The notes below the pieces were generated by a model. It searched no databases, had not been told where the DNA came from, and worked only from the letters and a program-made list of their open reading frames with translations. From TPA_inf: Saccharomyces (Eukaryota), in NCBI GenBank assembly GCA_000146045.2, contig BK006942.2, positions 352,001 to 416,000 of the forward strand: a stretch of DNA of 64,000 nucleotides. The letters are read 5' to 3'. Both the position numbers and the translations under genes were made by a program. Positions 47,777-64,000 of this stretch are shown in pieces. The first letter of the stretch is position 1. Each line of letters opens with the position of its first letter.

Positions 47777-50689
47777 ATGGACCCTCACCAATCACCAGCT
47801 GATAATGCCGCATCGCCTACGAAGAGCGTGAAGGCAACCACTAAAAATTCGTCCACGAATAATAATGTCAATAGCAACAACAGCAATAATAACAGTAACC
47901 ATGATATACTGAATTTTAATGATAACTATACTACCATTCTGCAACATTTGGCAAACGACCATCCTAATATACTGAGGGAGAAAGGAGGATCACAACAACA
48001 ACAGCATCAGCAGCAGCAACAACAGCAACAACAGCAGCAACAACAGCAGCAACAACAGAGCCTGGATACCCTTTTGCACCATTATCAAAGTTTACTCTCC
48101 AAGAGTGATAATGCAATAGCCTTTGATGACAATGTTAGTAACAGCGCAGATCATAATGGCAGTAATAGCAACAATAATAACAACAATAATGACATATCTA
48201 GTCCCGGTAATCTGATGGGATCTTGCAATCAATGTAGATTAAAGAAAACAAAGTGCAACTATTTTCCCGACCTAGGCAACTGTCTCGAATGTGAAACGTC
48301 AAGAACTAAATGCACCTTCAGTATTGCTCCAAATTATTTGAAAAGAACGTCCTCTGGGGCAAACAATAACATGCCAACCTCTTCAAACTCCAAACGAATG
48401 AAAAATTTTGAAGACTATTCGAATCGCTTACCCAGTAGCATGCTCTATAGACATCAACAGCAGCAGCAACAGCAACAGCAGCAACAGCGTATACAATACC
48501 CCAGATCCTCTTTTTTCGTCGGTCCGGCCTCAGTTTTCGATTTGAACTTGACCAAGCATGTAAGACTAGATAATGTTGACCAAATACAGCTATCAAAAAC
48601 TTTATCATTAAGAAAGGTGTCTCCTACCGCACAGTTTATTCTTCAGGACGATTTTGACACGACCCTTCATAGTAAGCAAGAATACGAAGTTGATTTGGTC
48701 GAAAATCTGGTACATCCGCACGGTCACCTTTTAGTAGAGATTTTCTTCAAATTGATTCATCCTTTTCTTCCAATTTTACACGAACGTGTATTTTTGGAAA
48801 AGTATTCTAGATCTTATAGAGAACTCACTGCGCCTTTACTGGCATCCATTTACTCACTGGCATTACAATATTGGGATTTTCATCCTGCACTTTTGGGGTT
48901 CCCTAAACCCGATGTAACTGCTCAACTAAACAATATCGCATTGGAAACATTTTATGCTCGAGTTGGAAGGCCAAAATTGAGCATTATACAAACAGGCCTT
49001 TTGATTTTGCAATGCCGTAGTGAATGTCATAACAACTGGGTCCTCTGCTCCAGCGTAGTGGCCCTTGCAGAGGAATTGGGGCTCGGGGTTGAATGTAATG
49101 ATTGGAAACTTCCCAAATGGGAAAAAGATTTGAGAAAGAGATTAGCGTGGGCAGTTTGGTTGATGGATAAATGGTGTGCATTAAACGAAGGTAGACAATC
49201 CCATTTAATTTTAGGTAGGAACTGGATGATCAAGCTATTAAACTTTGATGATTTTCCTCTGAATTCGCCCACTATTTTAAATTCCTTGCAAAATGACCAG
49301 TCGGGGTCTTCACCCTCGTCATCAAATGATGTGAAAAACCATCAGATAGCATTTGGTAACTTGCCCATATTTAACATAAACCCCACTTTAGAAGATTTCA
49401 AGAATGGAACGCTTATGTTTCAACAAATGGTTTCCTTGAGTATAATTCTTGGGGAAATCATGGACACATTTTACACTCAGGGATCCATGACAATAAACAA
49501 AAGCATTGAACAGGTATTGAAACTGGCAAAGCCGTTGCAACTGAAATTAAGAGAATGGTACCATTCCCTACCCAAGAATTTGTCAATGAGTTATGCCACG
49601 CCACAAAAATTGAACTCAAATTCAACTTTAACTCTAGCTTATTTTGCCACGGAAATTACGTTACATAGGAAAATTATCTGTGCCTTGAATCCTCAAACTC
49701 CAAAGGAACTGGTTCAAGTATGCAGGACTGCTGCAAGAACCAGGCTTGTAGCAGCAATTGAATTTATAAGAGATCTAAAAAACGAACATATTAATGCTTT
49801 TTGGTATAACTGCTCAACTGGAAATCTGATGCTAATTGGAACATTTGCTGCCCTGCTGTATGTGACTTCAGCTACGAAGGAAGAGGCTATGATTTTCAGA
49901 GATTATGTTAGAAATTATACCTGGGTATTGAAGATAGGTTCCAAATACTTTGATAAACTATCGAATGCTTTGAATAATATGCATTTACTATTTGCACAAA
50001 TTCCTGGTCTTCTGACCGATGAACCGGTGGTCGTGAGCCCTAACTCTAACATCAATTCCGTTAACCCACAAAGGTCAGGTGTACAATCGCAAATCCCAAT
50101 ACAATTTAACGTGGGATCACCTGCCATGACCGAGCAAGGATCTCCTTTAAACCAGTGGAAGAATTTGCCCCAGGAAATCTTGCAACAACTAAACTCCTTT
50201 CCCAACGGTACGACCAGTACAACAACGCCAGTAAACCCCACTTCCAGACAAACACAACTAGAATCGCAGGGAAGTCCAGCCATAAATAGTGCTAATAATA
50301 ATAGCAACAACACGCCTTTACCATTTGCGCCAAATAAGTCTTCTAAAAAAACTTCACAATCTTCACCAAATGTTACGCCCTCTCATATGAGCAGACACCC
50401 CCCCTCTAATACATCTTCACCAAGAGTCAATTCCAGCACAAATGTCAACTCTAATACACAAATGAATGCTTCTCCCTTGACCTCAATTAACGAAACCAGA
50501 CAAGAGTCAGGTGACGCTGCAGATGAAAAAACAGCAGGAAGAGAAAGAACCGCCAACGAGGAATCATCAACGGAACTCAAGGACGATAATCCAAACTCGA
50601 ACCAGGAAACAAGCGCAACTGGTAACCAAACTATAAAAATGAATGATGATAAAAATGTAACAATTAACACAAGGGAAACCCCTCTGTAA
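47777..50689 (+). CDS. DAL81: Zn(II)2Cys6 transcription factor Dal81/Uga35 (general co-inducer for allantoin, GABA, urea and amino-acid (SPS) responsive genes), ~970 aa from Met at 47777 (track ORF begins at 47729).
   Basis: ORF 47729..50689. Gal4-type zinc cluster (CNQCRLKKTKCNYFPDLGNCLECETSRTKC), two poly-Gln tracts, and a fungal transcription-factor middle homology region. Confidence 0.9.
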   Translation: MDPHQSPADNAASPTKSVKATTKNSSTNNNVNSNNSNNNSNHDILNFNDNYTTILQHLANDHPNILREKGGSQQQQHQQQQQQQQQQQQQQQQQSLDTLLHHYQSLLSKSDNAIAFDDNVSNSADHNGSNSNNNNNNNDISSPGNLMGSCNQCRLKKTKCNYFPDLGNCLECETSRTKCTFSIAPNYLKRTSSGANNNMPTSSNSKRMKNFEDYSNRLPSSMLYRHQQQQQQQQQQQRIQYPRSSFFVGPASVFDLNLTKHVRLDNVDQIQLSKTLSLRKVSPTAQFILQDDFDTTLHSKQEYEVDLVENLVHPHGHLLVEIFFKLIHPFLPILHERVFLEKYSRSYRELTAPLLASIYSLALQYWDFHPALLGFPKPDVTAQLNNIALETFYARVGRPKLSIIQTGLLILQCRSECHNNWVLCSSVVALAEELGLGVECNDWKLPKWEKDLRKRLAWAVWLMDKWCALNEGRQSHLILGRNWMIKLLNFDDFPLNSPTILNSLQNDQSGSSPSSSNDVKNHQIAFGNLPIFNINPTLEDFKNGTLMFQQMVSLSIILGEIMDTFYTQGSMTINKSIEQVLKLAKPLQLKLREWYHSLPKNLSMSYATPQKLNSNSTLTLAYFATEITLHRKIICALNPQTPKELVQVCRTAARTRLVAAIEFIRDLKNEHINAFWYNCSTGNLMLIGTFAALLYVTSATKEEAMIFRDYVRNYTWVLKIGSKYFDKLSNALNNMHLLFAQIPGLLTDEPVVVSPNSNINSVNPQRSGVQSQIPIQFNVGSPAMTEQGSPLNQWKNLPQEILQQLNSFPNGTTSTTTPVNPTSRQTQLESQGSPAINSANNNSNNTPLPFAPNKSSKKTSQSSPNVTPSHMSRHPPSNTSSPRVNSSTNVNSNTQMNASPLTSINETRQESGDAADEKTAGRERTANEESSTELKDDNPNSNQETSATGNQTIKMNDDKNVTINTRETPL

Positions 50690-50840
50690 TATAAATAATA
50701 GCACATAAGTAAAAATGGAATACGGTAATAACTATATAGAAATATCTTCTGCAGGACCAAGGTTACTGAGTGGTGAATGTAAAATTATTTATTCGCTTGC
50801 GTTATATTTACATGTGGTATATCCGGATGCATAGAGCCTA

Positions 50841-51491
50841 CTATAGAAATTTTGGGATTTTATCATGTTCTTTGGCGATTTCATTCAAATCACCTGGTTG
50901 GTTCATCATCATATGGACATCACCACTTAGGTAAACCTTTTCATCTTCTTTTTTCGACTTTTCTAAATCTTTTAGAACATTCAAATCAGTGACAATCCCT
51001 TCTTTGTTCTTAACGCCAGCATCTGGAGTTTTTTCGATTACTTCTTTTTTTGCCTCGTCTATTATACTTTGCCAGATCTCTTCCAATGACTCTTCCTTAG
51101 GAACCACAATATCAGTCTCATCTTCCTTCATCCCAGTTGCGTTCTTGCCGACGATTCCTAAACGCAAATTCACAAGTTTCAATTCATCATCTGCGTCGAA
51201 GTCTACCTTTCCATTATTATCATGAACCCTCCGTATCAGCTCTTTCAATTTATCAAGTTTTAGCTTATATTTCCTTTCCATATCAATAATGTTCCTTTTC
51301 TCGGCTATTACTGCGTTTAATATCGACCCAAATATCATTACCAAAAGTAAAGGTTTGATCATTGTTTTATCAAATCTTGACTTTCTCTTAATGCCCGCAT
51401 TTGCTGATGCAACAGTTCTAGCGGTTATCTTTATGGGAGCAAGGCTCCTTAAAAATAGACCATTTCTTAACACTTGTCTTGCCATAAACAT
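50841..51491 (-). CDS. INA22: Mitochondrial inner-membrane assembly complex subunit Ina22 (F1Fo ATP synthase assembly), 216 aa.
   Basis: ORF 50841..51491 minus strand. N-terminal presequence-like basic region, one TM segment (LLLVMIFGSILNAVI), and a C-terminal coiled-coil/acidic domain. Position between DAL81 and MND2. Confidence 0.7.
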   Translation of the reverse strand: MFMARQVLRNGLFLRSLAPIKITARTVASANAGIKRKSRFDKTMIKPLLLVMIFGSILNAVIAEKRNIIDMERKYKLKLDKLKELIRRVHDNNGKVDFDADDELKLVNLRLGIVGKNATGMKEDETDIVVPKEESLEEIWQSIIDEAKKEVIEKTPDAGVKNKEGIVTDLNVLKDLEKSKKEDEKVYLSGDVHMMMNQPGDLNEIAKEHDKIPKFL

Positions 51492-51658
51492 TTTTCCTTA
51501 CACCTTTTACGTATGACTTGTCTTTCCTTGTTGTTACTTTTTCCCTGCTCATTATATCACATAAGATGTAAATTAGAGGATGCGTAAAATAGTTCAACTG
51601 TGCTACGCCACATCAGAATACCGACAACCATAAACAGCGGCGAAGAGAAGACAAAGCA

Positions 51659-52765
51659 ATGGCAAGAGCGTTGAGGGATATATCATTATTCAATGATATA
51701 AGAAAGGATCAAAATTCGGCAGGAGCCAAGCATGAGAGATATAACATGAGAGATCTCCGAAGTAAGAAGAACCAGCATGTAAATGGCATAGATGATTATG
51801 AAGATGATTCGCTTGACAGATTTATAAGAAGGAAGAAATCCAGAGTTGTGAAATACATTCCATCATTGTCAGCGTATAATGTGTTCAATGAATTTCCTTA
51901 CTATCCTACGTCAGCCAGTCAGTTACTAGACGGCAAATTAGACGAATTTCTAATGCTGTCAGAACAATACAAAAGTAGATTACCCAAAATACGCAAGCTA
52001 GGATGGAATAGATTCAAACCAATAGGCATTAATAAAACTATGTACGAATTAGAAATGCTAAGGTCTCGAGCACGAGCTCAAAACGCGGAAGGGAACAATG
52101 AGGAAGACTTCAGGCAGCACGATTCTAGAGAAGAGGATCCAAGAAACAATGGCTCTATAGGACGCGTGATACTGCCTCATATTCTACAGGAAAATGAAGA
52201 ATATGATACTGGTGAGGGTGTTACAGGATTGCATAGCATGCCAAATGACAGTATGGCCATACTTGCGAATAACAGTGCTAATAATTCGCAAAATGAGGAA
52301 GTATCAGAGGAGGATGAAATATCATACGATTATGATGCAGAGTTCGATCATGTTGTAGATGAGGATGATAATGAGGAGGGAGAAGTGCCGGGGGAAGGTG
52401 TGGAAGGTATAGAAGTTCAGAGAGAGAGAATTGTGCCGGATGACTTATTAATGAGACCCACTTCACTGTCACGCTCCCTACAACAGTTTGTGGAAGAGGC
52501 TCATCATTTAGATAGAAACCCATATGATATTGACAGTGATAACGACGGAGAAGATTCAAAGGTAGAACTGGACATGAATCCGGATTTTGAAGATGACGTG
52601 GGAAGAGAGCATGATTATAATAGCGAATACAGCCAAGAGCCGACTTCTTATGGTGGGATTACACCTGATCTAGCGAGTAATTGGAGGAATTGGACTAGGG
52701 AGAGGATAACTAGTTTAGATGAATTAATGGAGAGACGAGCCAGGCAGCAACGAGGTCAAGATTAG
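51659..52765 (+). CDS. MND2: Meiosis-specific APC/C subunit Mnd2 (inhibits APC-Ama1), 368 aa.
   Basis: ORF 51659..52765. Acidic, low-complexity protein. Size and position match. Confidence 0.7.
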   Translation: MARALRDISLFNDIRKDQNSAGAKHERYNMRDLRSKKNQHVNGIDDYEDDSLDRFIRRKKSRVVKYIPSLSAYNVFNEFPYYPTSASQLLDGKLDEFLMLSEQYKSRLPKIRKLGWNRFKPIGINKTMYELEMLRSRARAQNAEGNNEEDFRQHDSREEDPRNNGSIGRVILPHILQENEEYDTGEGVTGLHSMPNDSMAILANNSANNSQNEEVSEEDEISYDYDAEFDHVVDEDDNEEGEVPGEGVEGIEVQRERIVPDDLLMRPTSLSRSLQQFVEEAHHLDRNPYDIDSDNDGEDSKVELDMNPDFEDDVGREHDYNSEYSQEPTSYGGITPDLASNWRNWTRERITSLDELMERRARQQRGQD

Positions 52766-52872
52766 AAAAATGCTCTCCTCAGCACCAAAATTCATCTATC
52801 TATTAAGATGTATACATACACAAGTGCACCAAAAGTGCTTAGTGGTAGTTATATTTGCTGATTATATCTAAG

Positions 52873-53967
52873 TTATCTATTTACTTTCTCGGATTCAAAA
52901 TTAACCATGTTGGGCAAAGCAGTGGATTGTAAGGGAAATTGATCCACTTTACTAGTTTGCAGGTGGATAGCGGGGATGACCCACTTACCACAACTGCACC
53001 TAGATCCTTTCCAGTTGTAACCGCCAACTTTACTTGAACAGCCTGGACATGAAAACTTCCCTTCTAACTCTTGCTTGCCTTGTAGTTCAGGTTGCATCCA
53101 TTTTAAAGGTTCGATGAAAAAATGAGAGCAATTTGCTTGTGACTCTTGAATATCAATAATACGATGGGAGTTGGCGGCCCTCTTGATGAAGTGTCCCTCT
53201 GATGATTCCTTACTTGGTGGGTCATGCGCGATGAAAGATGTAGATAACGCCAATTTGGTTCTGCACTTCTTACATCTCACTGCGGTGACCTTGCTCTTCT
53301 CAGCTTCAGTTAATTTATCCAAGTCTTGCGACGACTCCGAATCTTTAAACATTCCAGAATTGGAGACCAATTCGCTGCCCGATGGATCTAACTTGATAGA
53401 TTGCTTCAGCTTCCACTGCTTATAGGCTGGGTTGTCGAAATCGACAAAATCTCCACCCATTTTCTCAAAGAGATGTAATTGTTCCATGAAATTCTCGTTT
53501 GGCTCAACACTCGGTTTCTTCCTCTTGACAGCGTGCATAGCCATTGATAGTGACAATCCATAACGATACATTAGGTAGGCTACTATGAAGGTTACAGATC
53601 TCGAGAGTCCTGCTTGACAATGAGCAAAAACAGCACCACGTTGTGGTTTCTTCTTGAAATCTACTAATCTGGGCGAATACTCAACTTCATTGGGGAACAA
53701 GCATTGATCAATGAATCGGTTCGTTTCATCGAAGTATTGCAGCACATCAGTCACATCATCATCATCGATGGGTATGTTTTTTAGCGTGTAACCTTTCCTT
53801 ATTAGATACTCTGGAATGACCTGGAATTTGATAACAGAAAGAATATGAGTAATGTTAAATTCTGCACCCAATGGTCTGTGGTCAATAATTGGACGGATTC
53901 CGCCAAGATATATGCCTCCTAATATCCTGGTAACTTCCTCGTCTACTGAGTTTGCATTTCCAGCCAT
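52873..53967 (-). CDS. YVH1: Dual-specificity protein phosphatase Yvh1 (ribosome 60S maturation, Mrt4 release), 364 aa.
   Basis: ORF 52873..53967 minus strand. DSP active site (HCQAGLSRS) in the N-terminal half, and a C-terminal Cys/His-rich zinc-binding domain (CKKCRTKL...CPGCSSK...CSCGKW). Confidence 0.9.
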   Translation of the reverse strand: MAGNANSVDEEVTRILGGIYLGGIRPIIDHRPLGAEFNITHILSVIKFQVIPEYLIRKGYTLKNIPIDDDDVTDVLQYFDETNRFIDQCLFPNEVEYSPRLVDFKKKPQRGAVFAHCQAGLSRSVTFIVAYLMYRYGLSLSMAMHAVKRKKPSVEPNENFMEQLHLFEKMGGDFVDFDNPAYKQWKLKQSIKLDPSGSELVSNSGMFKDSESSQDLDKLTEAEKSKVTAVRCKKCRTKLALSTSFIAHDPPSKESSEGHFIKRAANSHRIIDIQESQANCSHFFIEPLKWMQPELQGKQELEGKFSCPGCSSKVGGYNWKGSRCSCGKWVIPAIHLQTSKVDQFPLQSTALPNMVNFESEKVNR

Positions 53968-54259
53968 CTTCCCTGTAATTTCTTGCTGCTTTTACTGCTT
54001 TCTCTGCGTTATACCTGTATTAGATGCATTCGATGAGCTGAGGTATAATTTTTTTTTTCAGTTAGATTTCTTTTTTTTAGCGCTAAGAAAATTTCAAAAT
54101 TGCAGCCGTGGAGACCCAGATGGATATATTGTAGATCATTAAAAGTTGTGTCATCTCAAACTAAGAGTGGTTAATATATGTATGTGTGTAAATAACTTTT
54201 TATAAATTTGTTTCTTTTATTTCTATAGAATTTCTTTAATAAAAATTTGCAACTTTAGT

Positions 54260-55642
54260 TTAACGTCTAGAATCAAGCAAAGTTTGACCCAATGGTGTTT
54301 TCGAGACTCCGTTGGCATTCGTATATACCACCTGGCCTCTTAATATGGTTTTCAAAACTGTGCCCTTGACCGTCATCCCGTTGTAGGCAGTCAATTTGTT
54401 TTTGAAGTAGACACTTGAATTACTTATTTTATGTTTACTTGCAGTATCAAATACCACCAAATCAGCATCGTACCCGGGAGCTATAGTGCCTTTTTGGTGA
54501 GATAGTCCTACCTGATGGGATGTATTTTTACAGCACCATGTAACGATATCGACCAAAGAGCAGCCTTGGGTAAACATCAATGGCAAACCTAGTCCGACGG
54601 AAGCGATTCCTCCCCAAGAATCGAAAAAGTCACCTTTTTGCAAGTTCTTCAACTCAGGGGTGCATGGCGAATGGTCGCTCACTACTGAGCCTATAACACC
54701 TTCACGCAAAGCGTCCCATAGGCCTTGGCGATTAGACTCAGAGCGGATGGGTGGACAACATTTAAAGTAGGTGGCTCCGTCTGGGATCTGCTCTGCAGCA
54801 ATACACAAATAGTGGAAACAAGTCTCTGTTGTGACTGGTAGCCCTGACGCACGTGCCTTTCTGATCAAGGGAATTGCTTTCATTGATGCCAGATGAACTA
54901 TATGTACAGGAGGAACTGGTCCATTTCTGGCTCTCAAGCATTCGAGAATCAAATTGATGGCGTCTATTTCGAAAGAATCCGGCCTCGAGGACAAAAACGA
55001 AGAATATTCACGATGGCTTTGCTCGGGTTGCTGTTGGTCCTCATGTGCCTTGGGCAACTCAGCATGAAACATCATCATGGTATCCTCCTCGGCTAAGACC
55101 TTCAAGGCTTCTTCTATATATTCTTTGCCAATTGGAGGGAATTCTTCCACACCAGAATCAAGCAAGAATCCTTTGAACCCGCGAACGCCAGCTTTGACAA
55201 GCGGAATTAAGTCTGGCAAGTTGTGTGGTACCAGTCCACCCCAAAACCCAACATCGCACCACATTTGGCCCTCAGCAGCTTCCAATTTAATTCGGAAATT
55301 CTCCACATTTGTTGTGGGAGGAATAGCATTTAGCGGCATATCAACCACCGTTGTGACCCCGCCACTAATAGCAGCTTGAGTTCCAGTTTCGAATCCTTCC
55401 CAGCTAGTCCTACCGGGCTCGTTCAAGTGAACATGAGAGTCCACAAGTCCAGGCAGAATTGTACATGGAGATACGTTCTCCAGCGTATGTATTTCATATT
55501 TGGTTATCTCAGTTTTCTCCATAACCACGGAGCCTTCTAAAACATCCAGAATCGTGCCTGATTCGGTCGAATACACAATAGTCGCAGGTTTATTTGCACC
55601 ATTGATAATGACATGGTCGGAAGTGATGGCATTGATAGGCAT
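54260..55642 (-). CDS. DAL1: Allantoinase (cyclic amidohydrolase superfamily), 460 aa.
   Basis: ORF 54260..55642 minus strand. Metal-binding H-x-H (VDSHVHLNEPGRTSWEG), carbamylated-Lys region, and the rest of the amidohydrolase fold. Part of the DAL cluster. Confidence 0.92.
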   Translation of the reverse strand: MPINAITSDHVIINGANKPATIVYSTESGTILDVLEGSVVMEKTEITKYEIHTLENVSPCTILPGLVDSHVHLNEPGRTSWEGFETGTQAAISGGVTTVVDMPLNAIPPTTNVENFRIKLEAAEGQMWCDVGFWGGLVPHNLPDLIPLVKAGVRGFKGFLLDSGVEEFPPIGKEYIEEALKVLAEEDTMMMFHAELPKAHEDQQQPEQSHREYSSFLSSRPDSFEIDAINLILECLRARNGPVPPVHIVHLASMKAIPLIRKARASGLPVTTETCFHYLCIAAEQIPDGATYFKCCPPIRSESNRQGLWDALREGVIGSVVSDHSPCTPELKNLQKGDFFDSWGGIASVGLGLPLMFTQGCSLVDIVTWCCKNTSHQVGLSHQKGTIAPGYDADLVVFDTASKHKISNSSVYFKNKLTAYNGMTVKGTVLKTILRGQVVYTNANGVSKTPLGQTLLDSRR

Positions 55643-55843
55643 CTTTGTTCTTCGCAGTATTTCACTTTTTTTTTGCCTATACGTTTTTGCGAAATATACA
55701 CTTTTCTAACCTAATTAAAGATAGCTAAAAGAAAAAGGGGTACCTTCAATTACAAGATACCAGTAGAAACTCATCACTTTTGCGTTACCTCATCATTGTC
55801 CCCTTCGATGAGATATGCCTCCTCTATATAGATAATTAAGCAC

Positions 55844-56221
55844 CGCAATTTTGAACCACTTCTCCTGATAAAGTTCCATCAGTCCACCATCAACACATTT
55901 GCGCCTATTCGATGATCCGCAGTAAGGGACAATAGAATCGAAACATGCAGTTCCTTTCTTTCCTGCAATTCTCGGGTCTAATGTGGCTCGAGGGTATCTC
56001 TTATCGGTATTACTTTCTTATCAATGAAAAATTTCTGCCAGGGAAAATGCGCCCGCTTTTTTTCCGGCCATCCTTACTCGCTGTCGCATACAAAATAGCG
56101 CCTCTAATCTAGTTGCGATAAGGAATGTGTATGTGTAATTGAAGATCCAGGATGTTTTCCTTTTCAGGGAGATGAGAAGGAATAATAGGATGGATTGACC
56201 GCTTTGCTGTCACGTCGATAA
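55844..56221. promoter_or_regulatory. DAL1-DAL4 divergent promoter: GATAAG motifs (CTTATC 56000-56005 and 56017-56022; GATAAG ~56116-56121 and ~56216-56221) and a UIS(ALL)-like AAAATTGCGG element (reverse-complement around 55844-55853).
   Basis: Direct motif reading in the 825-bp region shared by the two divergent genes. Confidence 0.6.
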
Positions 56222-56467
56222 GGTTCCTTTAAAAATTGTGTCCAATGATTAGCATAGAGAGGTAGAGTATCAGAGAAACAAGTTTGTAATCGAGAAACTT
56301 GATCTGCTAGTGTTGAGCATAGAAGGCTAGGAAAACATGGGGAAGAAAAAAAAAGTATAAATAATTAGCTTGATGAGTAGTTTGAATATATATGTTACTT
56401 TAGTTTCCCTTTTTGACCTTTTATATTCATCTACATCTTGTGATATAAAACATCAACAAAGACGAGA

Positions 56468-58375
56468 ATGGCTAACGACGCTCTAAGTGCTATTTTCAGT
56501 AATCCTTCGAGGAAAGGTGTCCAACCCTCCACATCTATTGTGTCATATACAAACAATGAAGATGATATTATAGATGTGGAAAATGGGAAGTTCAACAAGA
56601 ACAAGAATATCAACACTAATGTGTATGTGGACAACTCCTCAATAGAGGAGAGCGAAGTCGTGCCCTTGCCCGAAACAAAGTCCATCTGGAGTAAAATATA
56701 CTACGATTTCATTGTGTTAGACAAGACAACTTTGAATGTTTCGTTGAAAGAGTCGTTCTTGTATAACAGAGACTTGAAACCGGTTGAAGAAGAAAGAAGG
56801 TGTTGGTCCTGGTTCAATTACTTATATTTCTGGCTGGCAGACTGTTTCAATATTAACACATGGCAAATAGCTGGTACAGGTCTACAACTAGGTCTGAATT
56901 GGTGGCAATGTTGGCTTACAGTTTGGATCGGCTACACTTTTGCAGGTATCTTCGTAGTATTGAACTCGAGATTTGGTTCCGCATATCACTTATCTTTCCC
57001 TATTACTGTTAGGGCCTCATTTGGTATATTCTTTTCTATGTGGCCGATTATAAATCGTGTCGTGATGGCTATAGTATGGTATGCCGTGCAAGCCTGGTTA
57101 GGTGCAACGCCCGTGGCACTGATGCTAAAATCTATTTTTGGCAAGAATCTGGAAGATAGAATCCCAAACCATTTTGGTTCTCCAAATAGCACTACTTTTG
57201 AATTCATGTGTTTCTTTATATTTTGGGTGGTCAGTATACCATTTGTCCTAGTGGCTCCTCATAAAATCAGGCATTTATTCACAGTAAAAGCAGCTTTGAT
57301 CCCCTTCGCAGCCTTTGGATTTTTAATCTGGGCTTTGAAGAAATCGCACGGTAAAATTGAGTTGGGGACGCTGAATGATTATTCACCTCATGGTTCCGAA
57401 TTTTCATGGATATTCGTTAGATCCCTAATGGCCTGTGTTGCTAACTTTGCCGCTTTGATTATCAACGCCCCTGACTTCGGTAGATTTGCCAAAAATCCTC
57501 AAGCGTCTTTGTGGCCACAATTGGTTGCCATCCCATTGTTCTTCGCCATAACATGTTTGATCGGTATCATTGTTACTGCGGCCGGTTATCACTTATATGG
57601 GGTTAACTATTGGTCACCACTGGATGTACTTGGTCAATTTTTGGAGACCACTTACACCAGAGGTACTAGGGCTGGTGTGTTCTTGATTTCTTTTGTATTT
57701 GCCTTAGCTCAACTGGGTACAAACATTTCTGCCAACTCTCTGGCATGTGGTGCTGATATGACGGCTTTGTTTCCAAGATATATTAATATTAGAAGAGGTT
57801 CTTTATTCTGTGTGGCAATGGCTCTATGTATCTGTCCATGGAACTTAATGGCCAGTTCAAGTAAGTTCACCAGCGCTTTGGGTGCTTATGCAATTTTCCT
57901 TTCCAGTATTGCTGGTGTCATTTGCGCGGATTATTTCGTAGTAAGAAGAGGATATGTGAAATTAACACATTTATTCCTGGCACAGAAGGGTTCCTTTTAC
58001 ATGTTTGGAAACAAATTTGGTGCCAATTGGAGGGCCTTTGTTGCGTATATTTGCGGTATCGCTCCAAATTTACCAGGTTTTATAGGTGATGTTGGAGCTC
58101 CAAAAATTACGGTTTCAGAGGGTGCAATGAGGTTATACTATTTAGGTTATCCGGTAGGTTTCTTTATTAGTGCGGTGATATACCTCATATTATGTTACTT
58201 TTTTCCTGTCCCTGGTACTCCCGTAACCAATTTTCTGACAGAGAAAGGATGGTTCCAAAGATGGGCTTATGTTGAGGACTTCGAGCAAGATTGGAAGAAT
58301 GAGTTACGTAGGGATGACCTCTGCGATGACACAGTCAGTATCTATGATGGCACCGAGGAAAAGATAGTTTACTAA
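56468..58375 (+). CDS. DAL4: Allantoin permease (NCS1 nucleobase:cation symporter family), 635 aa, ~12 TM helices.
   Basis: ORF 56468..58375. Multiple hydrophobic helices. Strong similarity to the Fur4/Dal4 NCS1 signature (e.g. NRDLKPVEEERRCWSWFNY). Diverges from DAL1. Confidence 0.92.
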   Translation: MANDALSAIFSNPSRKGVQPSTSIVSYTNNEDDIIDVENGKFNKNKNINTNVYVDNSSIEESEVVPLPETKSIWSKIYYDFIVLDKTTLNVSLKESFLYNRDLKPVEEERRCWSWFNYLYFWLADCFNINTWQIAGTGLQLGLNWWQCWLTVWIGYTFAGIFVVLNSRFGSAYHLSFPITVRASFGIFFSMWPIINRVVMAIVWYAVQAWLGATPVALMLKSIFGKNLEDRIPNHFGSPNSTTFEFMCFFIFWVVSIPFVLVAPHKIRHLFTVKAALIPFAAFGFLIWALKKSHGKIELGTLNDYSPHGSEFSWIFVRSLMACVANFAALIINAPDFGRFAKNPQASLWPQLVAIPLFFAITCLIGIIVTAAGYHLYGVNYWSPLDVLGQFLETTYTRGTRAGVFLISFVFALAQLGTNISANSLACGADMTALFPRYINIRRGSLFCVAMALCICPWNLMASSSKFTSALGAYAIFLSSIAGVICADYFVVRRGYVKLTHLFLAQKGSFYMFGNKFGANWRAFVAYICGIAPNLPGFIGDVGAPKITVSEGAMRLYYLGYPVGFFISAVIYLILCYFFPVPGTPVTNFLTEKGWFQRWAYVEDFEQDWKNELRRDDLCDDTVSIYDGTEEKIVY

Positions 58376-58591
58376 ATAAAAATCCCAATTTATTCTCTTA
58401 CCAGTAGTGATCAGGAGAATTGATAATTTCTTCAAAACACCTTAATATTCGTTCTGTGTATTTTTATGTACCTTTCTTAATCAAATTTATCAGCTTCATA
58501 CATGCATTCCCGTCTGAATAATGTACTGATGATTAGCTAAACCGTCATCAACCTACCAAACTTGCGCTTGTTTGAGCCTATCAGAACTCCG

Positions 58592-58633
58592 GATAATTCC
58601 GACATCTTATCTTTGACTCGAATTAGCGATAAG
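58592..58633. promoter_or_regulatory. DAL2 promoter GATA elements (GATAA 58592-58596, CTTATC 58606-58611, GATAAG 58628-58633).
   Basis: Direct motif reading ~180-215 bp upstream of the DAL2 ATG. Confidence 0.55.
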
Positions 58634-58806
58634 ATAAAAACACAGGAACCACAATGAAATTCAGCTGGAAGAAAAGTCTAAATTATAGACACATTTTCTG
58701 AGATCAAATGCTATAAAGGAATGGAAGTGCATTTTGCTATGATATGGGGAAATTATGAAGCCGATCAAACAATTAATTGTATCTAATCGGTCTCTTCTTT
58801 AGAAAA

Positions 58807-59838
58807 ATGAAGTTTTTTAGTTTGGCAGATGAGGCAGAATTTAAGTCAATAATCATTTCAAAAAACAAAGCAGTAGATGTTATAGGATCTAAGTTAGGTG
58901 GTCAAGTGGTTTCTTTTTCAGATGAATGGTTTGCTTCTGCTGAAAATTTAATTCAGCCAACTGCTCCTATAAGGGATCCTACCAGATTTGTTCATTCAGG
59001 CGCATGGTACGACGGCTGGGAAACACGAAGACATAATGAGATGGAATACGATTGGGTTATCATCAAGATGGGAGTCGCTGCTGCCCATATTATTGGTGGT
59101 GAAATTGACACTGCGTTTTTCAATGGTAATCATGCACCATTTGTATCAATAGAGGCGCTCTATGACGAGGGCGAAGAAGGTAATATAGTGGAAGATGACT
59201 CGCGTTGGGTTGAGATTGTTGAGAAATTTGAGTGTGGTCCTTCGCAAAGGCATCTTTTCGTTAGAGGCAACGGCCTTACTAAAGAAAGGTTTACTCACAT
59301 CAAGCTGAAGATGTACCCCGATGGAGGAATCGCCAGATTTAGATTATACGGAAGAGTTGTTCCTCCAGAACTCAAAACGAAGGATCATATAATTGACTTG
59401 GCTTATGTTTGCAATGGTGCTGTCGCTTTAAAGTATTCTGACCAACACTTCGGTTCAGTTGATAATTTGCTACTGCCAGGTCGAGGTCATGATATGTCGG
59501 ACGGCTGGGAAACCAAAAGATCGAGACAACCAGGTCATACTGATTGGGCGGTAATTCAACTGGGCAGGGAGTCTTCTTTCATTGAGAAGATTATTGTTGA
59601 TACGGCACACTTCAGGGGGAACTTCCCTCAGTTCATTACCGTGGAAGGTTGCTTGAAGGAGTCAGAATCAAGTGAGAACACTGGTGAAGGAACATGGGTA
59701 GAGCTAGTTGGTAAGTCAAAGACGGGGCCTGACAAAGAACATGTGTATGAAATACGTAAGAGTATAAGAGTCTCCCATGTCAAATTAACGATTATTCCAG
59801 ATGGAGGAGTGAAAAGAATAAGAGTTTGGGGGTACTGA
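58807..59838 (+). CDS. DAL2: Allantoicase (two tandem allantoicase repeats), ~343 aa from Met at 58807 (track ORF begins at 58777).
   Basis: ORF 58777..59838. Internal duplication visible (SDEWFASAENL...GWETRR and MSDGWETKR...). Allantoicase family. Confidence 0.88.
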   Translation: MKFFSLADEAEFKSIIISKNKAVDVIGSKLGGQVVSFSDEWFASAENLIQPTAPIRDPTRFVHSGAWYDGWETRRHNEMEYDWVIIKMGVAAAHIIGGEIDTAFFNGNHAPFVSIEALYDEGEEGNIVEDDSRWVEIVEKFECGPSQRHLFVRGNGLTKERFTHIKLKMYPDGGIARFRLYGRVVPPELKTKDHIIDLAYVCNGAVALKYSDQHFGSVDNLLLPGRGHDMSDGWETKRSRQPGHTDWAVIQLGRESSFIEKIIVDTAHFRGNFPQFITVEGCLKESESSENTGEGTWVELVGKSKTGPDKEHVYEIRKSIRVSHVKLTIIPDGGVKRIRVWGY

Positions 59839-60035
59839 TAAATACTTAACTACTGTATATTTTAAACCAATGCACTCTTGGCACTTTAAAAGTAAAGGTA
59901 TAAATGTAGTTAAAAGTTTTTGTTTTGATAATTGAATGTTTTCATTTCGCTATCCCCACGCTACTTTATTTACTTCTTCTTCTTCACGACAAAACATTAA
60001 AATTTACACTCTATAAAAAACAATCATATTTCTAT

Positions 60036-60770
60036 TTATTTTTGTGAGTTGACAAATCTTATCATAGTGATTAGAATCTGTAAACCGATCTCAATCGTGT
60101 CCAGAAACAGCGTGCCATCCCTTTGGAATGTTTTCGCCAGTTTATTTTGCAAACCCGAGAATCCTGCACAACCTAATATTACAATGTCTGAATCAAGCTT
60201 TTTAATATTTTCGCGATATATAATTTCTGCTATCTGCTGGAAATTTTCTGGACTATGTAGGTCGAGGACCTGTAAATCAGTAGATACCGTACCTTTCCAT
60301 AAATTTTTGTTAACTGTATTCCCTGTCAAGAATTTCGATTCCACAGAGTTATTCAATATTGGAATCCATTCTTTATTTGAAGTAATAATAGAGAACTTCT
60401 TTCCAACCAAATTGCAATAATTAATACTACTATCTAATAACCCAACAATAGAAACATCTGCTTTTTCTTTAGCAGCTCTATCCTTTATCTTTGCTACCAA
60501 AGGATGATCTGAAAAACAGGCAATTAATATCCCGTTGAATTTCTGAAAGTAATATACCGACTCCTGGTCATCAATTAAGAGGGGAAGACAGGCCTCCATA
60601 CTTTTAATACTTGTTTCCTGCCCATCAATTTGTGGTGGCGACGTGTCTGGCCCTGTGAAATAACTGATTTTACATGATTCCATTGAAAAAGTCTTTTCAA
60701 TGGTTTCCCGCAAGGACACCGTCATTGACTTCGAACTATTAGGATTCACAACAAGTATTCTTGTTTCCAT
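60036..60770 (-). CDS. DCG1: Dal80-controlled gene 1: Asp/Glu/hydantoin-racemase-like protein, 244 aa, substrate unknown.
   Basis: ORF 60036..60770 minus strand, sitting inside the DAL cluster. Two putative racemase catalytic Cys regions (ILIACFSDHP and ILGCAGFSG). Confidence 0.85.
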   Translation of the reverse strand: METRILVVNPNSSKSMTVSLRETIEKTFSMESCKISYFTGPDTSPPQIDGQETSIKSMEACLPLLIDDQESVYYFQKFNGILIACFSDHPLVAKIKDRAAKEKADVSIVGLLDSSINYCNLVGKKFSIITSNKEWIPILNNSVESKFLTGNTVNKNLWKGTVSTDLQVLDLHSPENFQQIAEIIYRENIKKLDSDIVILGCAGFSGLQNKLAKTFQRDGTLFLDTIEIGLQILITMIRFVNSQK

Positions 60771-60918
60771 CGTTCGATAATTTGCTTAGCTAGTTTTTCT
60801 TTGTTCTTTTGATTTTCCTGAGGTAAGAATTAGTAATTCAGTTTCCTTACATATTCTCGCTTCAAAGGCTTAAATATGATCTGGCATGGAGAAAAAATAT
60901 GAGTTCAATTTGTCATAC

Positions 60919-60934
60919 CTTATCAGGCCTTATC
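60919..60934. promoter_or_regulatory. DCG1 promoter: two tandem CTTATC (GATAAG) sites 10 bp apart (60919-60924 and 60929-60934), ~150 bp upstream of the DCG1 ATG.
   Basis: Direct motif reading. DCG1 was named for its control by the GATA repressor Dal80. Confidence 0.6.
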
Positions 60935-61014
60935 AGCTCAAATTTGATTGGATTATGCGTTAAAACAGCGCCTAAAATTCTTCGAATATTCGTCAGGTTA
61001 TGTACGTATACATT

Positions 61015-62679
61015 CTATAATTTACTTAAGTCAACTGGTTTGGCACTTGGCTTAATAATTTCATCATACAATAAAGTGGTCAAGAAGTCGCTAAAGATTT
61101 TACCAGTGACTTCAGGCAAAAAATACTTGGCTGCCAAGGCAAACTTGTTCTTTTCACCCAGCGGACTTGCTGAAGCCAATTTTGCAGTCTCTTCATTTAA
61201 TATCTTAGCGGTCAATTCTGGAGTTACTTTGTCACCGGTATCACTTAAGACAACACCATGTTTAACCCACTGGTACAATTGACAACGTGATACTTCCGCA
61301 GTAGCGGCATCTTCCATCAAATGATTAATTGGGACACAACCAGATCCCCTTAACCAAGCCTCCATATATTGTAGGCCAATATCCAAGTTTACTCTGATTC
61401 CCTCAGTAGTGACTTGAGCATCTTGAATCTTCGTATTCAATAAATCAGATGATGTAACATGTACATCCGGGACAAAATATATTTGATTTGCTGTACCCAT
61501 GTTACTGAAAACTTCATTACAAATCGGTGCCAATGCTGGGTGTGCTACCCATGACCCATCATGCCCATTCTTCATTTCTCTAATTTTGTCATTACGAACT
61601 TTGTTCATTGCAGCTTCATTAGCCTTTGGATCATCTTTTATGGGGATTTGGGCAGCCATACCACCCATCGCATGGACCCCTCTACGGTGACATGTATTGA
61701 TCAATCTTTTCACATAAGCATCCATAAAAGGTGAAGTCATAGTCACTAGATCCCTATTTGGCAAAACGTGTTCAGGCAAGTTTCTCAGTTTTTTAATGGT
61801 CGAAAATATGTAGTCCCAACGACCACAGTTCAAACCGCTTGAATGTTCTCTTATTTGATAGATAATCTCCTCCATTTGGAAGGCCGCTGGCAAAGTTTCA
61901 ATCAGAACAGTGGCCCTAATGGTACCGCGGGGCATTCCAATAAAATCTTGTGCAACACAGAATATGTCATTCCATAGTTTTACCTCCATATGGTGCTCCA
62001 TCTTTGGTAAGTAAAAATAAGGTCCTTTACCAATTTTAACTAACTCTTTAGCGTTATGGTAAAAATATAAACCAAAATCGAAGATGGAAGCACTAATCGG
62101 TTCATCATCTATGTAAAGGTGCTTCTCCACCATGTGCCAGCCACGAGGTCTGACAATTAAAGTGGGCAGTCTTGAAATGTCATCCTTCAACCTGTACTCC
62201 TTTCTTGGTGTCTTGAAATCGATTTGATTTCTAATGGCATCATAAAGATTAACTTGTCCGTAAATCATGTTCTCCCAAGTTGGAGATGAAGAGTCCTCGA
62301 AATCAGTCATATATGTCGTTACTTCAGCATTCAAAGCGTTGACTAACATATTTCTCAATGGTGGCCCAGTAATCTCGCTGGATCTGTTGATCAAACCAGG
62401 GGCTGGGATAGCACCTTGCCATGTAGGATCGTTCCTGATTTGTTCGGTTTCCGGCAAGAAATCAAATCGGTATTCACCAGAGTCTAACTTTGATTGTAAA
62501 TTGCTTCTGTTGGCTAAAAGCTGTTTCCGTGTTGAATTGAAAGTTCTATGCAGCAAAACAATGAACTCTAAGGCATCTTTTGTTAAAATATCAGCTACAG
62601 TAGTTTTGGAAGGTTCAAATTGAGGAGTCGTGTCGATGTCTGCGTATAGAGCAGTGTTGTCCAAGCTTATCTTCACCAT
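61015..62679 (-). CDS. DAL7: Malate synthase (glyoxylate-consuming; allantoin-pathway isozyme), 554 aa.
   Basis: ORF 61015..62679 minus strand. Malate synthase family signatures throughout. Carries a C-terminal SKL peroxisomal targeting signal. Confidence 0.93.
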
Positions 62680-62840
62680 TGTTCAGTGCTCTTTACCGTG
62701 CCTATGACACATACTCTAAGTGATATCAACTGCACAGAAAGTGAAGAATTAAGACTACATGCGTAAATGTCCCCATTTTATACTTATTGCTTCACCAATT
62801 GACGAAACTATCCAATCTTTGTGATACTTTCACGATGTAC

Positions 62841-62907
62841 CTTATCCAAGATAAGCCAAAACTTATGAAATTCAATTTATGTGATAAGAAAAGCAAACGC
62901 AATTTTC
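62841..62907. promoter_or_regulatory. DAL7 upstream control region: inverted pair of GATAAG sites (CTTATC 62841-62846, GATAAG 62850-62855), a further GATAAG at ~62884-62889, and the allantoin-pathway upstream induction sequence UIS(ALL) GAAAATTGCGTT (reverse-complement at 62896-62907).
   Basis: Motifs read directly. GATAAG is the UAS-NTR bound by Gln3/Gat1/Dal80/Gzf3. The dodecanucleotide GAAAATTGCGTT is the published Dal82-dependent UIS of DAL7. Confidence 0.75.
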
Positions 62908-63029
62908 CAAAATCCGCGGTATTCTATCGCACCGCAACTTTCAGCGGAGATTTTATGTCGATAATCGTAAACCTATGAAATTACTAATACATGAACATTT
63001 ACATATTTACTTCGCCCACAGTCGCAGAA

Positions 63030-63617
63030 TTAGATGATAATACAAACGTCGCCATCGCTGTAGTGTTCTTCCACACAGTCCTTCTCGGGCCTGTCAGGGT
63101 CCAGACTTTCGTAGATTAAGACTGAAAAATCCAAATGTTCTTCCTTGCCAAGTACTATCATGGGCGCATGCCAGGTACCTAAGCCATAGGTAACGGCCTG
63201 ATTACCCAAACATGTAAAAGCCCTCAACGTAGACAAGTCTGGCTTATTTCCAATTTCTTTAGCGACTACTACCAAGTATGCTACTTCCGCTGACGTTCTC
63301 CCCATAGGCACAAACGTCTGCGTACTACACGGATGCTTTTCGAGGACTTTGATAGAATGAGAAATCGCCTGATTGGAGCCTTGAGTGAATACTCTATTCA
63401 GGTGCGGCTGTGGAAAGCAACGGAATAGGTTCCAATTGGGAACTTTACTGGTAGATTTATTCTCTACCTGGCTTACTTGAAGCAATTTGATCGCTGTTCC
63501 CTGGTTTGCACCTTTTTCAAGGTTTTGCATCCTTGAAATCTCTTCATCTGGCGAAATTATCGTCCCATACTCCTCGAAGGACTCTTTCGTCAATGTCTCC
63601 GCCACCACGGTCACCAT
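63030..63617 (-). CDS. DAL3: Ureidoglycolate lyase (ureidoglycolate hydrolase family, cupin fold), 195 aa.
   Basis: ORF 63030..63617 minus strand. Size and position at the distal end of the DAL cluster. A cluster of GATAAG motifs lies upstream. Confidence 0.88.
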   Translation of the reverse strand: MVTVVAETLTKESFEEYGTIISPDEEISRMQNLEKGANQGTAIKLLQVSQVENKSTSKVPNWNLFRCFPQPHLNRVFTQGSNQAISHSIKVLEKHPCSTQTFVPMGRTSAEVAYLVVVAKEIGNKPDLSTLRAFTCLGNQAVTYGLGTWHAPMIVLGKEEHLDFSVLIYESLDPDRPEKDCVEEHYSDGDVCIII

Positions 63618-63648
63618 ATCTTTGCTTCAAAGATTTTTTGCCCTACAA

Positions 63649-63784
63649 GATAAGCATCAAGAGCGATTGGATGACAGTTACTGACTTATATATGCGAATG
63701 CACATGAATAGACCGCATATGCTTCTTATCAGTCTTACCTCGCTTATCTTTCCCCATTTATTTGCCAATCCATCTTATCTTATC
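63649..63784. promoter_or_regulatory. DAL3 promoter: at least five GATAAG motifs (GATAAG 63649-63654; CTTATC 63725-63730, 63743-63748, 63774-63779 and 63779-63784 overlapping).
   Basis: Direct motif count. Far denser than expected by chance in 140 bp. Consistent with nitrogen-catabolite-repression control. Confidence 0.7.
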
Positions 63785-64000
63785 TGGCACTTTGTCTCAG
63801 GGTTAGTGTTACAAAAAGGCTAGGACTTATTTCCAAAATTCTACTTTTGAAAATAACCCTAACAATAAAAGCAAGGGCATTCTGATGTTACCCTAGAAAT
63901 GTCGTATTTCTTTTTATATCGTGGATCATGACAAAAAACTCAACATTTTCAAATGGGTGAGCTCTAAACCAGAAAATACAGCCGCCGAAAGCCTTTTAAA

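Follow-up and report, generated by a model that had tools for sequence, protein, structure and literature searches.

DCG1, a member of the allantoin (DAL) gene cluster of budding yeast, probably encodes an allantoin racemase whose main function would be the conversion of (R)- to (S)-allantoin; we infer the substrate and the physiological role from the fold and putative active site of the protein and from the genes that surround it. The gene lies in a 64,000-nucleotide stretch of Saccharomyces DNA (contig BK006942.2, positions 352,001 to 416,000 of the forward strand; here, the window), and the translation of its open reading frame (ORF) exactly matches S. cerevisiae S288C Dcg1p (UniProt DCG1_YEAST). 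The ORF that the earlier note had placed between DAL2 and DAL7 is the known baker's-yeast gene DCG1, in agreement with its limits, its identity to the S288C protein and its Pfam-scanned neighbors (Table 1). Two ORFs on the forward strand (60049-60420 and 60899-61282) were considered as genes and rejected; they are antisense or overlapping and lack supporting evidence.

The proposed role would be as follows. Dal4 would import environmental allantoin, which would be partly racemic because allantoin racemizes spontaneously (PMC5270733), and the Dal1 allantoinase would open (S)-allantoin only. In Dcg1, Cys85 and Cys201 would face C5 of the hydantoin ring from opposite sides, one cysteine taking the C5 proton and the other donating a proton from the opposite face. 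In this way (R)-allantoin would be turned into (S)-allantoin, so that the whole allantoin pool would become usable as nitrogen. Poor nitrogen would induce DCG1 together with the other DAL genes via GATA sites, apparently without the help of an allantoin-specific inducer element.

Table 1. Features discussed in the text; positions are counted from the first nucleotide of the window.
Feature	Position	Strand	Remarks
DAL1, allantoinase	54260..55642	-	Pfam Amidohydro_1; TIGR03178, 481.7 bits vs. cutoff 357.85
DAL4, NCS1-family allantoin permease	56468..58375	+	PF02133, E 2.6e-178
DAL2, allantoicase	58807..59838	+	Pfam
DCG1 (YIR030C), coding sequence	60036..60770	-	ATG-to-stop ORF, 244 aa + stop
Cys201 codon	60168..60170	-	ILGCAGFSG (from residue 198), aligned with HpxA catalytic Cys184
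Cys85 codon	60516..60518	-	IACFSDHP (from residue 83), aligned with HpxA catalytic Cys79
DCG1 promoter (DAL7 3' intergenic region)	60771..61014	-	244 bp
Two head-to-tail GATAAG	60919..60934	-	candidate Gln3/Gat1/Dal80 sites, 10 bp start to start
DAL7, malate synthase	61015..62679	-	Pfam
DAL3, ureidoglycolate lyase	63030..63617	-	Pfam

Fold and putative active site of Dcg1

Dcg1 matched the Pfam family PF01177 (Asp_Glu_race) with an E value of 4.2e-30 (105.6 bits vs. a cutoff of 31), and the match ran from end to end, residues 5-231 of Dcg1 corresponding to profile positions 1-209 of 211. In a scan of NCBIfam, the best match was TIGR00067 (glutamate racemase), which was sub-threshold (E 0.029, 13.8 bits vs. 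a cutoff of 146.65); since this was all that the scan yielded, there is no equivalog model for the Dcg1 branch. The AlphaFold2 model, computed with 24 fungal homologs, was confident and compact (pLDDT 94.3, pTM 0.90), with a two-lobed alpha/beta fold and strand/helix alternation in both halves. The SGD text, as given in PMC4401569, states that Dcg1 'contains transmembrane domain', a remark that does not fit the globular protein predicted by the model.

When the model was compared with the PDB by Foldseek, KpHpxA (3qvj) ranked first (TM 0.78, E 1.6e-13), followed by PfAllR (5lg5/5lfd, TM about 0.75). Below these allantoin racemases came the Pyrococcus horikoshii 'hydantoin racemase' (2eq5) and then fungal OpaE (9qbx), and the Glu/Asp racemases, maleate isomerase and arylmalonate decarboxylase came last, with E values of about 1e-5 and TM scores of 0.5-0.65. 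A Dcg1-family profile run against solved structures gave E values of 1.3e-19 for 3qvj, 7.7e-16 for 5lfd and 1.5e-5 for 2eq5, with weaker matches to OpaE (1.7e-5) and glutamate racemase (2.5e-3). Profile E values and Foldseek agreed in placing Dcg1 nearer to the HYD (HyuE/HpxA) subfamily than to Glu/Asp racemases, maleate isomerase or arylmalonate decarboxylase. The assignment of Dcg1 as a protein of the Asp/Glu/hydantoin-racemase fold, predicted from its sequence and its model, is solid. The racemase fold and two-cysteine dyad that the earlier note had read from the sequence were recovered with PF01177, the AlphaFold2 model, Foldseek and the HpxA alignment, and the check that it proposed, fold prediction with comparison to HpxA, returned KpHpxA as the top Foldseek match with both cysteines retained.

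Cys85 and Cys201 were invariant in the 24 fungal homologs, and in the model each of the two pseudo-symmetric alpha/beta domains is predicted to contribute one catalytic-type cysteine. The contact residues were compared by using the published HpxA numbering, which we deduced from the alignments to be the chain index plus two. Asn12, Thr118 and Thr119 of KpHpxA are reported to hydrogen-bond allantoin (PMC12661438, section 8). In the alignment, Asn12 maps to N11 of Dcg1, Met17 to M16, Thr118 to T130, Thr119 to S131, Cys79 to C85 and Cys184 to C201. Five of these six residues were invariant or nearly so in the Dcg1 family (N11 and T130 invariant, S131 at least 90% conserved among the 24 homologs), and M16 was merely the majority residue. 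Of the S. cerevisiae alleles listed, 14 were full-length, and in these the two cysteines and the contact residues were unchanged, one M16V aside. In the HYD subfamily, Kp position 12 is Asn/Asp, position 118 is Thr/Ser and position 119 is Thr (PMC12661438). Dcg1 carries the corresponding polar contacts (N11, T130 and S131) and has the NPN(S/T)S and T-T/S contact motifs of the hydantoin branch. In an alignment of 47 sequences, no motif was found that separates allantoin-acting from hydantoin-acting members. The hydrophobic C-terminal helix of Dcg1 (residues 225-242) aligned with the final helix of HpxA.

Constraint, gene order and nitrogen control of DCG1

Pairwise dN/dS values for DCG1 among four Saccharomyces species were 0.08-0.12 (about 0.1), similar to those of DAL3 and somewhat higher than those of DAL2 and DAL7. 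Natural alleles of S. cerevisiae include at least one that is cut to 196 aa and ends before Cys201. DCG1 is clearly under purifying selection, yet it can be lost on occasion.

Membership of DCG1 in the DAL cluster, as had been claimed from the sequence, held up, with DAL1, DAL4, DAL2, DAL7 and DAL3 all confirmed by Pfam (Table 1). By the NCBIfam equivalog, Dal1 is a true allantoinase. Allantoinases prefer (S)-allantoin, and the stereospecificity of Dal1 is taken from the literature (PMC5270733). Among the Pfam-scanned ORFs of positions 50000-64000, Dal1 was the sole cyclic amidohydrolase, and no linkage of DCG1 to D-hydantoinase/dihydropyrimidinase and carbamoylase genes was found. An ARS between DAL2 and DCG1 is mentioned in PMC3419248; a search for the 11-bp ACS gave no exact match.

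In S. uvarum, S. arboricola and a third Saccharomyces species, DCG1 was flanked by DAL7 and DAL2. In Kazachstania naganishii, whose cluster has been rearranged with the gain of DAL5, DCG1 was still located between DAL7 and DAL4. Five species, S. cerevisiae included, thus have DCG1 in the DAL cluster in spite of rearranged gene order, and in all five it is linked to allantoinase and allantoin transport genes, the context criterion for EC 5.1.99.3. In Komagataella and Lachancea thermotolerans, which did not undergo the whole-genome duplication (WGD), the DCG1 ortholog did not adjoin DAL genes. In post-WGD yeasts, the DAL genes, DCG1 among them, either occur as a cluster or are missing altogether (PMC4629796), and the cluster arose after the WGD through the relocation of genes, with DCG1 moving in (PMC2776167, PMC4629796). 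The positions of DCG1 in the non-WGD yeasts agree with this published assembly by relocation.

The pair of GATAAG sites that the earlier note had seen in the DCG1 promoter is present on the strand of the gene at 60919-60924 and 60929-60934, 149-164 nt upstream of the ATG. With about 0.13 such hexamers expected in the 244-bp region, two or more would occur with a Poisson probability of about 0.008. The hexamer was not enriched over the whole window (42 observed vs. 35 expected), but the DAL intergenic DNA, 2.43 kb in all, held 16 of the 42 sites (p about 1e-12). All four Saccharomyces species had the proximal site unchanged, and two of the four had kept the distal site. For the inducer element of the allantoin pathway, we took GAAAATTGCGTT to be the consensus. 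The DCG1 promoter (60771-61014) contained no match to it within 2 mismatches, and a perfect copy was found in the DAL7 promoter only (62896-62907). DCG1 is listed as an experimentally verified NCR gene (PMC7307137), nitrogen limitation raises its expression 4-fold (PMC7307137, PMC4401569), and in the SGD text it is said to be 'regulated by Dal80p' (PMC4401569).

Relatives outside the yeasts and the choice of substrate

In a neighbor-joining tree (225 columns, 100 bootstraps; a rough method), budding-yeast Dcg1 formed a clade with 98% support, and a split with 97% support set the fungal side apart from every prokaryotic and algal sequence. KpHpxA and PfAllR fell in a proteobacterial/actinobacterial clade (99% support). 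Because the fungal proteins and HpxA/AllR occupy separate clades, Dcg1 is, in this tree, neither an ortholog of a proven allantoin racemase nor nested within their clade. The proven enzymes are only about 21% identical to Dcg1. With the Dcg1-family profile, a large group of uncharacterized bacterial homologs scored 130-145 bits, when compared with 61-74 bits for the proven allantoin racemases. Many of the homologs carry an 'allantoin racemase' label in JGI.

Gene neighborhoods were analyzed at the best 80 prokaryotic loci. In 26 of them, mostly in high-GC genomes, the racemase gene escaped the simple ORF caller, so that the neighbor frequencies are rough. Dal1-like amidohydrolases were present at 16 of 80 loci, and yeast queries detected Dal2 or Dal3 homologs at none. 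Such queries are blind to the bacterial AllC, AllE and PuuE routes, and allantoin could therefore still be used at these loci. The NCBIfam test of the amidohydrolases is stronger evidence: all ten bacterial enzymes tested (encoded within about 6.5 kb of the closest relatives of Dcg1) passed TIGR02033 (D-hydantoinase/dihydropyrimidinase) and failed the allantoinase equivalog. Several loci had genes for an NCS1 permease, the racemase and a D-hydantoinase on one strand, e.g., one Fusobacterium and one Peptococcia locus in which they were contiguous, and in a metagenomic homolog the racemase gene started 3 nt after that of an NCS1 permease. Most alphaproteobacterial loci had Liv-type ABC transporters and a GntR regulator instead.

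Among the fungi, the order in Kwoniella was CN_hydrolase, racemase, transcription factor, D-amino-acid oxidase (DAO), dihydropyrimidinase-type amidohydrolase and MFS transporter. The racemase formed a divergent pair with the CN_hydrolase and lay about 4.7 kb from the amidohydrolase, the DAO-family gene and the transcription factor being in between. The lichen fungus Pycnora had the order racemase, CN_hydrolase, dihydropyrimidinase-type amidohydrolase. The amidohydrolases of both fungi shared 34-48% identity with bacterial dihydropyrimidinases and only about 26% with yeast allantoinases. The homologs of Sporisorium, Recurvomyces and Rhodocollybia had no informative neighbors. Outside the Saccharomycetaceae, relatives of Dcg1 are linked to genes of D-hydantoinase/dihydropyrimidinase and carbamoylase type and not to allantoinase.

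Since the neighbors of the relatives are of the hydantoinase type, the family alone would indicate a hydantoin-type racemase, and homology, as read from the sequences, does not by itself specify allantoin as the substrate of Dcg1. It is the yeast context alone that points to allantoin: DCG1 is a cluster member in five species, it is under GATA control, and Dal1 is the sole cyclic amidohydrolase of the cluster. Allantoin is favored as the substrate because (i) Dal1 is an allantoinase, Dal4 is an allantoin permease, and DCG1 moved into the cluster and was kept there; and (ii) allantoin is the sole pathway intermediate that would reach yeast as a mixture of enantiomers. The closest solved relatives are two proven allantoin racemases, and allantoin is, on this comparison, a reasonable choice and the most sensible candidate substrate. 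The proposal of the earlier note thus stands in part: fold, contacts and cluster favor allantoin, but membership of the family is not specific for it, and the idea had already been published.

Alternatively, Dcg1 might be a general, HyuE-like racemase of 5-monosubstituted hydantoins or dihydropyrimidines, with a main substrate other than allantoin; its location in the DAL cluster would then reflect shared regulation when nitrogen is limiting and not a role in allantoin breakdown. The D-hydantoinase/dihydropyrimidinase and NCS1 permease genes near the nearest prokaryotic relatives would fit such an enzyme, as would the CN_hydrolase and dihydropyrimidinase-type genes of Kwoniella and Pycnora and the lack of an inducer-element match in the DCG1 promoter. 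To our knowledge, S. cerevisiae has neither a dihydropyrimidinase nor a beta-ureidopropionase, so that a racemized hydantoin other than allantoin would have no obvious onward route, which counts against such a role. We consider a general hydantoin racemase unlikely, given also that the only cyclic amidohydrolase of the S. cerevisiae cluster is an allantoinase, that DCG1 was relocated into the cluster and kept across five species (PMC2776167), and that the closest solved enzymes are allantoin racemases. A quite improbable reading is that Dcg1 is catalytically inert or dispensable, as a relic of the cluster or as a binding or regulatory protein. The natural allele that stops before Cys201 and the lack of any phenotype or activity in the searchable literature would be in line with it, and spontaneous racemization of allantoin could make an enzyme nearly dispensable (PMC5270733). 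It is opposed by a dN/dS comparable to that of DAL3, by cysteines and contact residues that are invariant across yeasts and in the 14 full-length alleles listed, by the confident compact fold predicted by the model, and by regulated expression (PMC4401569, PMC7307137).

Action on another chiral intermediate or small molecule, e.g., ureidoglycolate or an acidic amino acid, is very improbable. PF01177 does include Asp/Glu racemases, maleate isomerase and arylmalonate decarboxylase, and the sub-threshold TIGR00067 match is to a glutamate racemase; against this, the Foldseek matches to those enzymes were far weaker than the matches to allantoin racemases, the glutamate racemase profile match reached an E value of 0.0025 only, and Dcg1 has the NPN(S/T)S and T-T/S motifs of the hydantoin branch. 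Ureidoglycolate, which the earlier note had offered as a second substrate, found no support, as the closest enzymes act on hydantoin rings; from the known pathway it would be made and consumed as one enantiomer, so that no racemase would be needed. Racemization of allantoin is our preferred function for Dcg1.

Dcg1 could derive from a fungal hydantoin/dihydropyrimidine racemase that was paired with a dihydropyrimidinase and a carbamoylase; in budding yeasts it would either have been re-tooled for allantoin upon its move into the DAL cluster or still act on a hydantoin other than allantoin, salvaged as a source of nitrogen. We hold this to be doubtful. If it were true, 'allantoin racemase' labels would be partly wrong, including those of bacterial homologs beside D-hydantoinases. 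The Kwoniella and Pycnora clusters are present-day examples of the supposed ancestral arrangement. The default context of the Dcg1 family elsewhere is a hydantoinase/dihydropyrimidinase, and the substrate is not to be assumed; the evidence for the label across the family is thin, and skepticism is due where bacterial homologs have been named 'allantoin racemase' automatically.

Descriptions of the DAL cluster that carry the racemase label for DCG1 reportedly trace to Wong and Wolfe in 2005. Since the prediction was published about 20 years ago, an allantoin racemase would come as no surprise. [quoted passage not shown] In the searchable literature, we found no enzymatic assay, genetic test or allantoin-specific phenotype of Dcg1. 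The remark of the earlier note that no function had been demonstrated matches this result and the SGD description of Dcg1 as a 'protein of unknown function' (PMC4401569, 2015). DCG1 is the sole textbook DAL-cluster gene without a demonstrated activity. Confirmation of the racemase would complete the pathway and would explain how yeast uses both enantiomers of environmental allantoin.

Comparison with known racemase systems

Fungal OpaE and actinomycete NozR belong to the HYD subfamily and use a Cys/Cys mechanism, as Dcg1 is predicted to do (PMC12661438, PMC10156859). In contrast to the role proposed for Dcg1, they are epimerases that act on large peptide-derived substrates, and the window contained no secondary-metabolite context. 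OpaE was a much weaker match to Dcg1 (TM 0.68, profile E value 1.7e-5), and OpaE-like proteins have hydrophobic residues where Dcg1 has polar Asn and Thr/Ser (PMC12661438, section 8).

Bacterial HyuE-type modules, which consist of an NCS1 permease, a hydantoin racemase, a D-hydantoinase and a carbamoylase, follow the same logic of import, racemization and ring opening as would DAL4, DCG1 and DAL1. The ring opener is a D-hydantoinase/dihydropyrimidinase in the bacterial modules (TIGR02033 above cutoff) and an allantoinase in yeast (TIGR03178 above cutoff). With the Dcg1-family profile, the racemases of these modules outscored the proven allantoin racemases.

AllR of Pseudomonas fluorescens (PDB 5LFD/5LG5) has the same fold as that predicted for Dcg1 and was its second-best match (TM about 0.75, profile E value 7.7e-16). 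The motif around the second cysteine, LGCGGMAG in AllR, is common to both proteins. In AllR, Gly replaces the first catalytic Cys (IQAGYGEH vs. IACFSDHP), whereas Dcg1 and HpxA retain it.

KpHpxA (PDB 3QVJ/3QVK/3QVL; EC 5.1.99.3) was the best match among solved proteins in both structure and sequence. It resembles Dcg1 in its canonical Cys/Cys dyad, in the Asn12, Thr118 and Thr119 contacts, in Met17 and in length (245 aa vs. 244 aa), at an overall identity of about 21%. The corresponding motifs of HpxA and Dcg1 are CFGDPG and CFSDHP, VTTLPR and ITSNKEW, and GCGGMA and GCAGFS, respectively. HpxA belongs to a proteobacterial clade and Dcg1 to a separate fungal one. Allantoin racemase activity is demonstrated for KpHpxA, and racemase activity is predicted for Dcg1.

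Fungal and bacterial loci with Dcg1-like racemases

A Dcg1-like racemase, a CN_hydrolase and a dihydropyrimidinase-type amidohydrolase are common to the clusters of Kwoniella bestiolae and Pycnora praestabilis, which are distant fungi, and a DAO-family oxidase, a fungal transcription factor and an MFS transporter are extra members in Kwoniella. In both clusters the CN_hydrolase belongs to the carbamoylase/beta-ureidopropionase superfamily. A possible role of these clusters is hydantoin or dihydropyrimidine utilisation.

Some bacterial Dcg1 homologs, either named 'allantoin racemase' or carrying no name, are encoded in operons together with an NCS1 permease and a D-hydantoinase (L020, L022); the metagenomic locus L004 differs in having two Amidohydro_2 genes beside the permease and racemase genes. 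The hydantoinases adjoining the bacterial racemases passed the dihydropyrimidinase equivalog and failed the allantoinase equivalog, so that the automatic 'allantoin racemase' label on such homologs is probably an over-annotation.

Coordinates of Dcg1-related loci, the Dcg1 C-terminal helix and overlapping reading frames
Feature	Position	Strand	Content
Kwoniella bestiolae cluster	L090:8197-17343		Dcg1-like racemase, CN_hydrolase, dihydropyrimidinase-type amidohydrolase, DAO-family oxidase, fungal transcription factor, MFS transporter
Pycnora praestabilis cluster	L092:10001-15086		Dcg1-like racemase, CN_hydrolase, dihydropyrimidinase-type amidohydrolase
Fusobacterium operon	L020:5034-10119		NCS1 permease, racemase, D-hydantoinase
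Peptococcia operon	L022:5058-10180		NCS1 permease, racemase, D-hydantoinase
Metagenomic locus	L004:6840-10783		two Amidohydro_2 genes, NCS1 permease, racemase
Dcg1 C-terminal helix region	window 60039-60110		residues 221-244, including the hydrophobic helix
Mechanical ORF	window 60049-60420	+	123 aa
Mechanical ORF	window 60899-61282	+	127 aa

Regulatory sites around DCG1

GATAAG sites are strongly enriched between the DAL genes: of the 42 in the window, 16 fall in the 2.43 kb of DAL intergenic DNA within 55643-64000 (p about 1e-12), where they are often closely paired (e.g., 56000/56017, 62841/62850 and 63774/63779). The DAL7 promoter contains one perfect and one 2-mismatch copy (62896-62907 and 62931-62942) of GAAAATTGCGTT, the consensus of the allantoin inducer element. 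Another 2-mismatch copy lies in the DAL1-DAL4 interval (55842-55853), and none was found in the DCG1 promoter.

Directly upstream of the GATAAG pair of DCG1, the block TGATTGGATTAT (60945-60956) is unchanged across four Saccharomyces species. Read on the DCG1 strand, ATAATCCAATCA, it looks like a CCAAT box. Alternatively, the block could be a DAL7 3'-end signal, because it lies ∼60 nt beyond the DAL7 stop codon.

Dcg1 alleles, overlapping frames and C-terminal region

The natural S. cerevisiae strain allele P0270 encodes 196 aa, diverges beyond about residue 190 and lacks Cys201; it is therefore likely a loss-of-function variant. The other 14 alleles among those listed differ from one another by up to about 10 substitutions, mostly conservative.

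Two mechanical ORFs, one antisense to DCG1 and the other extending over both the promoter of DCG1 and the 3' end of DAL7, have no support as genes, although PMC3419248 mentions an antisense transcript across DCG1.

A database remark states that Dcg1 contains a transmembrane domain. This is probably a false positive: in the confident globular model, the hydrophobic helix at the C terminus forms the final helix of the racemase fold.

Beyond the fungi, the algal homologs P0048 and P0083 and the Chloroflexota-type bacterial homologs P0081-P0113 share an extension at the C terminus that bears a TSK(R/N)xLY motif; this extension is absent from the fungal Dcg1 proteins. The neighbor-joining tree placed P0048 and P0083 among prokaryotic sequences, not with fungi. 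In contrast to these algal and Chloroflexota-type homologs, the proven allantoin racemases HpxA (K. pneumoniae) and AllR (P. fluorescens) lack the extension in their aligned parts.
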